NCBI RefSeq assembly: GCF_000179635.2
Contig: NC_014833.1
Coordinates: forward strand, 2,430,001 to 2,462,000
Origin: Ruminococcus albus 7 = DSM 20455
Lineage (GTDB): Bacteria > Bacillota > Clostridia > Oscillospirales > Ruminococcaceae
DNA length: 32,000 nucleotides
Reading direction: 5' to 3'
The notes beneath the pieces were generated by a model. That model was not told the origin of the DNA. It saw nothing but the letters and a program-made list of their open reading frames with translations, and did no database searches. Below are positions 2,303 through 2,598 of this stretch, piece after piece. Numbering within the stretch: the stretch's first letter is position 1; each line of letters starts with the position of its first letter. Both the position numbers and the translations under genes were made by a program.

Positions 2303-2352
2303 AAGGCACAAACAGCAGTTGTCATTCTTATTTCAATGATTGAAAGTGCCTT
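2303..2352 (+). ncRNA. Structured RNA module 1 (50-nt stem-loop, short type)
   Basis: The 7-bp terminal stem is AAGGCAC (2303-2309) / GTGCCTT (2346-2352). ACAGCA sits at 2312-2317. The inner hairpin is TCATT (2322-2326) / AATGA (2335-2339). Conserved TTATTTCAA sits at 2328-2336, spanning the apical loop and the first two nt of the 3' inner arm. It has the same length as module 3 and shows compensatory stem changes against it. Confidence 0.5.
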
Positions 2353-2373
2353 GCAGAACTAAAGTAGAATTTT

Positions 2374-2446
2374 TCGGCTCTCACAGCATTATTTTGTCCA
2401 CGGCGGAGGTGCTGCACCGACAGCGCCGCCTTAAAAGACGAGCCGA
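2374..2446 (+). ncRNA. Structured RNA module 2 (73 nt, tRNA-sized, long type)
   Basis: The 7-bp terminal stem is TCGGCTC (2374-2380) / GAGCCGA (2440-2446), plus a possible U-G pair at 2373/2447. ACAGCATTAT sits at 2383-2392. A GC-rich inner hairpin pairs GGCGG (2402-2406) with CCGCC (2426-2430). Confidence 0.5.
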
Positions 2447-2452
2447 GTGAAT

Positions 2453-2502
2453 AAGACGCAGACAGCAGATATATGTGTTATTCCAAAACATAAAAGCGTC
2501 TT
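2453..2502 (+). ncRNA. Structured RNA module 3 (50-nt stem-loop, paralogue of module 1)
   Basis: The 7-bp terminal stem is AAGACGC (2453-2459) / GCGTCTT (2496-2502). ACAGCA sits at 2462-2467. The inner hairpin is TATGT (2472-2476) / ACATA (2488-2492). The loop contains TTATTCCAA (2478-2486). Confidence 0.5.
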
Positions 2503-2522
2503 GAGTATAAAAGAAAAAAGTA

Positions 2523-2598
2523 TCGGCATTAACAGCATTATCTTAGGGGCTCAGACACCATCGCAAAACGACAAGGGCTGAGTAAAAAAATGTGCCGA
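2523..2598 (+). ncRNA. Structured RNA module 4 (76 nt, tRNA-sized, paralogue of module 2)
   Basis: The terminal stem is TCGGCA (2523-2528) / TGCCGA (2593-2598), plus a U-G pair at 2529/2592. ACAGCATTAT sits at 2532-2541, identical to the 10-mer in module 2. The inner pairing is CTCAG (2550-2554) / CTGAG (2578-2582). Confidence 0.5.

Follow-up and report, generated by a model that had tools for sequence, protein, structure and literature searches.

Five ACAGCA-box RNA modules beside a Ro60-fold DUF2828 gene in Ruminococcus albus 7 as putative Y-RNA-like partner RNAs

We analyzed a stretch of 32,000 nucleotides (nt) from Ruminococcus albus 7 = DSM 20455 (NC_014833.1, positions 2,430,001 to 2,462,000; this whole stretch is called the window and its first letter is position 1) and in particular a non-coding spacer of ~420 nt (2288-2709) that lies between the stop codon of orf155 (2287) and the ATG of a gene coding for a DUF2828 protein (2710). 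The spacer is without a long open reading frame (ORF) and folds on the + strand as five successive hairpin modules (M1-M5), which are quite probably five putative Y-RNA-like partner RNAs of a divergent Ro60-like DUF2828 protein within an rtcB RNA-repair operon, as judged from sequence and predicted structure. The modules have a common anatomy, are conserved among related loci, covary in their stems, keep to one strand and are associated with the DUF2828 gene, and they belong to an RNA family, apparently undescribed, whose members adjoin Ro60-like genes of numerous bacteria and phages. From bacteria to humans, Ro60-Y RNA particles have been conserved. DUF2828 proteins are common and essentially uncharacterised, and to our knowledge no RNA partner has been reported for them hitherto.

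In each of the five modules a helix of 8-10 base pairs (bp), formed by the 5' and 3' ends of the module and usually opening with a U·G pair, is followed by 2 nt; then come the ACAGCA box, which is single-stranded and invariant, an apex that varies and a 3' strand rich in A. The box starts at 2312, 2383, 2462, 2532 and 2621, each time exactly 10 nt after the first base of its module, and the modules are separated by A/U-rich spacers of 4-19 nt.

2302-2353, + strand: M1, class A; helix UAAGGCAC/GUGCCUUG, box at 2312-2317, apical 5-bp hairpin UCAUU/AAUGA
2373-2447, + strand: M2, class C (C1-like apex); helix UUCGGCUC/GAGCCGAG, box at 2383-2388, long G+C-rich apical hairpin
2452-2503, + strand: M3, class B; helix UAAGACGC/GCGUCUUG, box at 2462-2467, short apical hairpin
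2522-2599, + strand: M4, class C (C2 apex); helix (A)UCGGCAU/GUGCCGA(G) with one U·G, box at 2532-2537, apical hairpin GGGGCUCAG.../...CUGAG
2611-2694, + strand: M5, class E (tRNA-mimic); 10-bp helix UAAGUCAGCA/UGCUGACUUG, box at 2621-2626

An initial annotation of this DNA had covered M1-M4; the fifth module and the presence of ACAGCA in all five are additional to it. In its interior M5 contains a conserved GG (2637-2638), a perfect tRNA T-arm (GCAGG-UUCGAAU-CCUGC, 2644-2660) and a GNRA-capped hairpin (2661-2679), and its single-sequence fold reaches z = -3.6. Using R1, a covariance model (CM) built solely from Ruminococcus short modules, we detected M1 (55.5 bits, E = 1.5e-12) and M3 (52.1 bits, E = 1.2e-11) and nothing else in the window, the next best match having E = 6.4. 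As this short-module CM does not detect the long modules M2, M4 and M5, all counts of long modules rest on a script that combines the sequence pattern with pairing. A reading of the array on the - strand was rejected, since the centroid fold is worse on that strand, the many U·G pairs, which exist on the + strand only, would turn into A·C, and CM R1 scores 8 bits there vs ~55 bits on the + strand. For the box region a K-turn or loop-E motif was dropped because the required G·A/A·G signatures are absent, and mimicry of an anticodon loop by ACAGCA was dropped because there is no U33-like context.

A genome scan yielded 36 loci, almost all from the Ruminococcus flavefaciens group, and the module statistics were compiled by the script from the window and the 35 related loci. 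Nearly every locus carries 3-8 ACAGCA boxes in the spacer upstream of the DUF2828 gene, and in 29 of the 36 an rtcB homologue immediately precedes the array. The 159 modules recovered comprise 148 unique ones, and among these the box occupies module positions 11-16 in 147 and the first stem pair is U·G in 133. Stem pairs 4 (G-C) and 6 (C-G) are nearly fixed; pairs 5 (GC 61, UA 48, AU 33), 7 (AU 79, GC 39, UA 26) and 8 (CG 105, GC 35) vary freely. Box density amounts to 7.9 per kb inside the arrays vs 0.53 per kb per strand elsewhere (269 kb), and a stem arm beginning with the family signature and pairing with its partner at 7/8 positions accompanies 157 of the 175 boxes inside arrays vs 26 of the 288 outside (Fisher p = 3e-73). 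The order of the module classes along the arrays is kept as well, typically as D-(B)-A-(F)-B-C-E-gene, and reads A-C-B-C-E in the window and A-B-C-B-C-E in L001, the locus of the closest relative. Class A has 27 modules in total, 26 of them from other loci, and the classes of M1 and M3 (TAAGGCAC and TAAGACGC) are each kept across Ruminococcus species.

Several loci (L002, L005, L006, L010, L011, L029, L031, L032) also contain ‘orphan’ boxes, among them CATTTCGCTCACAGCAC and ACATCGCTTACAGCACA, which have a recognisable 5' arm and no 3' partner, for example at -421 and -201 relative to the gene start in L005. They look like shortened or decaying modules, which suggests a turnover within the arrays. 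The locus L012 has no rtcB in its flank; a class-E-type module (2457-2534), whose apex is without T-arm, lies 544 nt upstream of the gene there, and the CM places further short modules at 2254-2447.

From M1-M4 alone it had been proposed that the RNA fold and not the primary sequence is under selection, and the underlying base pairs can be read exactly as described. Between M1 (AAGGCAC...GTGCCTT, 2303-2352) and M3 (AAGACGC...GCGTCTT, 2453-2502) G-C is replaced by A-T at pair 4 and A-T by G-C at pair 6, both modules keep the apical motif (TTATTTCAA and TTATTCCAA in the two apices), and their identity, estimated as about two-thirds, is 33/50 without gaps (66%). Between M2 (TCGGCTC...GAGCCGA) and M4 (TCGGCAT...GTGCCGA) pair 6 changes from T-A to A-T and pair 7 from C-G to U·G, with the ACAGCATTAT box present in both. 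Covariation is also strong among the modules of the related loci. In the short modules of classes A and B (53 distinct sequences) the closing stem is 98.1% paired, a percentage that leans high because the alignments are bounded by preselected stems, and the two highlighted positions of M1 and M3 alternate between A-U and G-C (30/23 and 32/21) without any unpaired case, so that no stem-disrupting substitution is seen at either of them. Shifting the partner by 1-3 columns lowers the pairing to 26-59%, and none of 500 shuffles reaches the observed covariation score. The long modules of class C show changes on both sides in nine pairs, apical helix included, and in an alignment of 32 class E orthologues the first pair of the T-arm covaries (G-C 24, A-U 7) with the GG upstream of it being conserved. 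Both the variety of pair types and the comparison of boxes inside and outside the arrays are independent of the preselection of stems. As the closing stems covary with compensatory changes, the fold is under selection.

On the + strand, the array belongs to a unit with the following further features.

560-1804, + strand: rtcB, first gene of the unit, coding for an RNA 3'-phosphate ligase (Pfam RtcB, E = 4.4e-106)
1820-2287, + strand: orf155, between rtcB and the array, a lineage-specific insertion
2696-2701, + strand: Shine-Dalgarno sequence AAGGAG of the DUF2828 gene, read from the sequence, 2 nt past the 3' arm of M5
2710-4182, + strand: gene of the predicted Ro60-fold protein (490 aa; Pfam DUF2828 + DUF7788), assigned by Pfam, AF2 model and Foldseek

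No family match was found for orf155 in Pfam, NCBIfam or PHROG, and among the loci compared only L001 has a homologue. In many other loci a class D module, which is T-arm-like, follows rtcB; it is missing in the window, as if the insertion of orf155 had displaced it.

The DUF2828 protein is predicted to fold like Ro60. Its AlphaFold2 (AF2) model (predicted local distance difference test 92.9, predicted template modelling score 0.91) was compared to the PDB using Foldseek, and the nine best matches are all Ro60/TROVE proteins aligned over the full length, with Xenopus Ro (1yvr) as the best one (E = 4.5e-9, TM 0.63/0.60) and 2nvo (Deinococcus Rsr), 9kop (a Thermus phage Ro60 homologue) and 2i91 as further full-length matches (E up to 1e-6). 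The predicted architecture combines a helical TROVE-like ring with a C-terminal vWA domain carrying a MIDAS (adhesion site dependent on metal ions), as in the Ro60 family, and the MIDAS residues DxSGS (D294, S296, S298) are invariant in an alignment of 76 sequences. The protein also matches PHROG 850, ‘RNA-binding protein’ (E = 4e-135). Its family is large, with 6,570 cluster representatives (E ≤ 0.001) as well as 711 phage records, and some phage homologues are already annotated as ‘Ro-like RNA binding protein’ or ‘RNA-binding protein’.

Units consisting of the helix and ACAGCA also flank distant DUF2828 genes in phages of Bacillus, Listeria, Staphylococcus, Mycobacterium and E. coli (35-53% protein identity). 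The bacterial or metagenomic loci L037, L038/L039 and L040 (42-53% protein identity) have 0.6-1.1 kb of non-coding DNA upstream of the gene with such units, some of them with much larger apices and, in L040, with a T-arm. Bacillus phage Nate carries at least four modules, two of them inside a tRNA cluster and one starting right after a TTGACA-17-TATAAT promoter. In Listeria phage AG20 (L043) three modules at 2652-2915 follow a consensus promoter at 2600-2628, the first one starting ~23 nt past the -10 box, and RtcB is encoded downstream. Four modules, one with a T-arm, occupy gaps of the tRNA cluster in Felixounavirus fjerdesal (an Escherichia phage, L044), where the modules at 4875-4942 and ~5273-5338 carry UCAGCA in place of ACAGCA, so that in enterobacterial phages the box can vary at its first position. 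Two modules are located just downstream of the DUF2828 gene in Staphylococcus phage 6ec, and two or three candidates just downstream of it in Mycobacterium phage GuuelaD, two of which the CM supports weakly (E = 0.14 and 0.23). When applied to 15 distant loci CM R1 gave 21 matches, 21/21 on the gene strand.

For a survey of viral DNA we used 80 IMG/VR contigs with a homologue of 35-43% identity and fixed flanks, and counted as strict modules only those with 8/8 pairs at the fixed offset. Of these, 108 are on the gene strand vs 12 on the opposite one (binomial p = 2e-20); they are present in 56 of the 80 contigs and clustered within 500 nt of the gene. The viral consensus reads U·G, A-U/U-A, A-U, G-C, R-Y, C-G, R-Y, C-G, NN, ACAGCA-A, and a T-loop is found in only 11 of 103 viral modules. 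Searching 50,697 phage records with the spacer (blastn) produced no match. Two unannotated regions among the tRNA genes of AG20 (992-1328 and 1404-2061), both upstream of the Ro-like gene, each open with a consensus TTGACA/-10 promoter and have no ACAGCA box; some of the three highly transcribed regions reported for the related phage CKA15 may be their counterparts.

None of the modules in the window is a tRNA with a cloverleaf, and most have no tRNA-like feature at all. ARAGORN reported 0 tRNA or tmRNA genes in the window, and the Rfam tRNA model matches the spacer only at the T-arm of M5 (model positions 46-63, 14.5 bits vs a threshold of 29). Canonical T-arm sequences (GGUUCGAAUCC) are present in M5 and in class D; M5 shows the T-arm followed by the GNRA-capped hairpin together with the upstream GG and no evident D-arm, and M1-M4 are without T-arm, acceptor-like hairpin and D-arm. 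A closer connection to tRNA is seen in two viral loci, L050 (2130-2245, 2454-2578 and 2585-2699) and L080 (2340-2452), which contain tRNA-like genes of 113-125 nt that reach 47-53 bits with the Rfam tRNA model and are not called by ARAGORN. Their acceptor, D and T arms are intact and the anticodon loop is replaced by an insert of 49-63 nt made up of a small hairpin and NN-ACAGCAA, so that the helix+ACAGCA unit is planted, circularly permuted, at the anticodon position. In these arrays, which lie upstream of a DUF2828 gene, the chimeras stand alongside true tRNAs and ordinary modules, and a consensus promoter of L080 leads directly into the first module. YrlA follows the same plan, its Ro-binding stem standing where the anticodon stem would be (PMC4201824). 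A likeness to phage tRNA clusters is given by the interleaving of modules with tRNA genes and by the full tRNA bodies that carry the unit in L050 and L080.

The comparison with the bacterial and phage Y RNAs bound by Ro60/Rsr (YrlA/YrlB of Salmonella, Yrn1 of Deinococcus, Yrl1/Yrl2 of Thermus phage phiLo) extends to the whole locus. These are likewise same-strand neighbours of a gene for a ring-plus-vWA protein of the Ro60 fold, often several per locus and often in an operon with rtcB, as in rsr-yrlBA-rtcBA; they possess a helix of the 5' and 3' ends beside a conserved single-stranded motif, with a distal domain that varies, and in each locus one RNA or more resembles tRNA through a T-arm. Thermus phage phiRo60 binds the Yrl RNAs encoded upstream, whose 5'-3' terminal stem flanks a bulge with CGAA (PMC12135203). 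With eukaryotic Y RNAs and Ro60 (1yvp, 1yvr) the modules and their predicted partner share the protein fold and a terminal stem whose 5' strand bears a conserved motif for protein contact; the eukaryotic RNAs differ in motif and size and have no tRNA mimicry, tandem arrays or operon context. Helix and box would be the docking site for the ring-shaped protein, as counterpart of the Y RNA terminal stem and its GNCGAA/CGAA bulge, and the variable apices could be exchangeable heads, namely short hairpins in M1 and M3, long irregular ones in M2 and M4 and a mimic of the T-arm or tRNA elbow in M5. Such heads would present different RNA shapes, some of them tRNA-like, and may tether partners, for example RtcB or nucleases, or act as mimics of RNA substrates. 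Co-transcription of the array with rtcB, orf155 and the DUF2828 gene is probable, and the polycistronic transcript might then be cut in the A/U-rich spacers to release RNAs of 50-85 nt, as in rsr-yrlBA-rtcBA. Since the 3' arm of M5 abuts the ribosome-binding site, occupancy of M5 may in addition tune the translation of the DUF2828 protein.

Several results weigh against this explanation or against an assignment to the Y RNAs. None of the Y-RNA models of Rfam matches the modules; at gathering thresholds Rfam 15 finds no family in the window or in 13 related loci except true tRNAs, and even at E up to 10 the region 2200-2760 gives three chance-level matches only, one of them a T-arm fragment. 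YrlA has the motif GNCGAAN0-1G near its 5' end as presumed Rsr contact (PMC4201824); G.CGAA is absent from 2288-2710, where the sole CGAA is found inside the T-loop at 2651, and in its place the modules have ACAGCA at the fixed 10-nt offset. In these two features, the curated model and the motif, the modules fall outside the YrlA family. The modules of the window are also without an evident D-arm, and the arrays are larger than those of Y RNAs, with 3-8 modules of which minimal ones of ~50 nt stand alongside longer ones. Bacterial Y RNAs of the YrlA type are encoded on the strand of a Ro60 (TROVE) orthologue and within ~4 kb of it. Although the array adjoins the DUF2828 gene on the same strand, the protein is linked to Ro60 at the level of the fold only: it matches Pfam DUF2828 and DUF7788 and not the TROVE model, its identity to solved Ro60 proteins is 12-14%, and phmmer and profile hmmsearch of PDB sequences did not find any Ro60. 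The folding energy of the whole spacer is unremarkable (z = -1.1), and the spacer holds no convincing promoter or terminator that would delimit separate RNAs in the window. In addition, no module was found within the examined flank of L035 and, by the strict criteria, of 24 of the 80 viral loci, and in L041 there is none between rtcB and the gene and two weak candidates further upstream.

A different origin of the array was suggested by the initial annotation, which described M1-M4 as a tandem duplication of ~150 nt. The direct repeats at 150/149 nt spacing do exist (D1, 80% over 20 nt, with a third copy at 2610; D2, 74% over 35 nt), but a tandem duplication is not the best description of what are five modules of one family. 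Aligned with each other the two 150-nt units have 62% identity (z = 8.1, 500 shuffles), and with their interiors alone z is only 2.1-2.5; their similarity comes mostly from the common stem and box cores. Tandem Repeats Finder, run on the whole window, reports no array at 2303-2598. The nearest relatives of M2 are its orthologue in L001 (0.96) and then class C modules of other species, those of M4 are found in L001 (0.91) and L019/L024 (0.85), and the interiors of M2 and M4 share 0.55 identity (rank 22-29 among all modules), so the two are less alike than copies in other genomes, in contrast to what head-to-tail copies would show. For M1 and M3 the value is 0.62, about equal to their similarity with many modules of classes A and B. 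Because M2 and M4 belong to different old apex subclasses, the duplication is not a recent one of 150 nt, and the period appears to be the alternation of short and long members in an old, dynamic array. The number of modules indeed differs between close relatives, as the initial annotation had asked to be compared, and in L001 one more short module stands between M1 and M2 and interrupts the 150-nt period. This variable copy number, the direct repeats and the orphan boxes would also suit a tandem duplication of recent date or a repeat, selfish or in decay, with no dedicated function (degenerate tRNA genes or hairpins like repetitive extragenic palindromes or miniature inverted-repeat transposable elements), but the box is invariant at a fixed position in all modules except one of the 148, the stems covary, the strand bias is strong and the modules are concentrated beside DUF2828 genes within the DNA examined, which makes such a repeat highly improbable.

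The main rival is a purely cis-acting role, in which the modules would be elements of the rtcB-DUF2828 mRNA, either autoregulatory operators to which the DUF2828 protein binds or processing and stability elements, with M5 gating the ribosome-binding site. This fits the window, where the 3' arm of M5 ends 2 nt before AAGGAG and no convincing internal promoter or terminator is present, and also most of the Ruminococcus loci, in which class E ends 15-16 nt before the start codon and the array occupies the entire intergenic space between rtcB and the DUF2828 gene. It does not fit about ten Ruminococcus loci with class E some 55-125 nt upstream of the start codon, and still less the phage arrangements, with modules downstream of the gene (6ec, GuuelaD) or among tRNA genes (Nate, Felixounavirus), with consensus promoters leading directly into the first module (Nate, L080) or lying shortly before it (AG20), and with units embedded in tRNA-like genes. 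Trans-acting RNAs are therefore the better fit and a purely cis-acting role is rather unlikely, even if both roles could coexist in the operon of the window. The modules might instead serve RtcB, as tRNA-fragment-like decoys or spare substrates for anticodon nucleases or for ligation by RtcB, and be linked to DUF2828 by operon membership only. The frequent position of rtcB directly upstream of the array, its occurrence near the DUF2828 gene in L037, L041 and AG20 as well, and the T-arm mimics of M5 and class D would agree with this, but in Felixounavirus, 6ec, GuuelaD, Nate, L038 and L040 modules accompany DUF2828 genes without RtcB in the flanks examined, and the invariant element is helix+ACAGCA and not a tRNA-like feature, as the rarity of T-loops in the viral modules illustrates. 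We consider a service to RtcB alone improbable, and keep to partner RNAs of the DUF2828 protein as the preferred explanation.

Taking all loci together we lean, by a small degree, towards the wider view that helix+ACAGCA defines a large unrecognised family of modular partner RNAs for DUF2828-type Ro60-like proteins that occurs on chromosomes of Firmicutes and in hundreds of phages whose hosts are Gram-positive, Gram-negative or actinobacterial, with a constant docking unit and interchangeable heads that range from bare hairpins and T-arm mimics to full tRNA bodies. At each locus a small set of adaptor RNAs would then be available for use in RNA repair, RNA decay or anti-defence. The modules are candidate partner RNAs for the DUF2828 family and bear on the roles of bacterial Ro60 and on the purpose of tRNA mimicry, as the natural series of heads shows how a docking-type unit is combined with it. 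It might also be possible to annotate such RNAs across genomes using the 8-bp helix, 2 nt and ACAGCA(A) as signature. A search of the literature for DUF2828 and related terms found no description of the motif; DUF2828-type proteins may nevertheless be mentioned in Burroughs & Aravind 2016 (NAR) or in the review of Sim et al. 2020.

These RNAs could also be connected to two questions of phage biology, namely abundant early non-coding transcripts and a Ro60-like anti-defence gene. In the P100-like Listeria phage CKA15 very abundant unannotated transcripts have been described just upstream of an Rsr-like gene (PMC12282133), and in the E. coli phage Bas63 the Ro60-like gp130 is encoded beside tRNA genes (PMC11482910); both papers speculate that Y RNAs adjoin the phage Ro60-like genes and define no RNA. 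If the wider view is true, the unexplained transcripts of P100-like phages may include ACAGCA-box RNAs, and the same may hold for the ‘hidden Y RNAs’ that were postulated next to gp130, which acts against the Ppl defence. The Rsr-like protein of CKA15, CKA15_055, has been detected by mass spectrometry in purified virions, and its best HHpred match is Deinococcus Rsr (PMC12282133). We presume that CKA15_055 is the counterpart of the DUF2828 homologue of AG20. For an RNA-binding protein whose gene lies outside the structural module, its presence in virions is surprising.

Some minor features of the window were also noted. A promoter-like sequence, TTGTCA-16-AAAAAT (2275-2302), overlaps the end of orf155 and was not adopted as promoter of the array because the predicted start falls inside the 5' arm of M1; it is probably not the one that drives the array. 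A putative ORF of 44 aa (2447-2581) that overlaps M3 and M4 was treated as spurious. Beyond the DUF2828 gene a convergent two-component system is located, and it is followed on the - strand (5985-31832) by ~25 tightly packed or overlapping ORFs that resemble a large biosynthetic or surface-polysaccharide-type operon.

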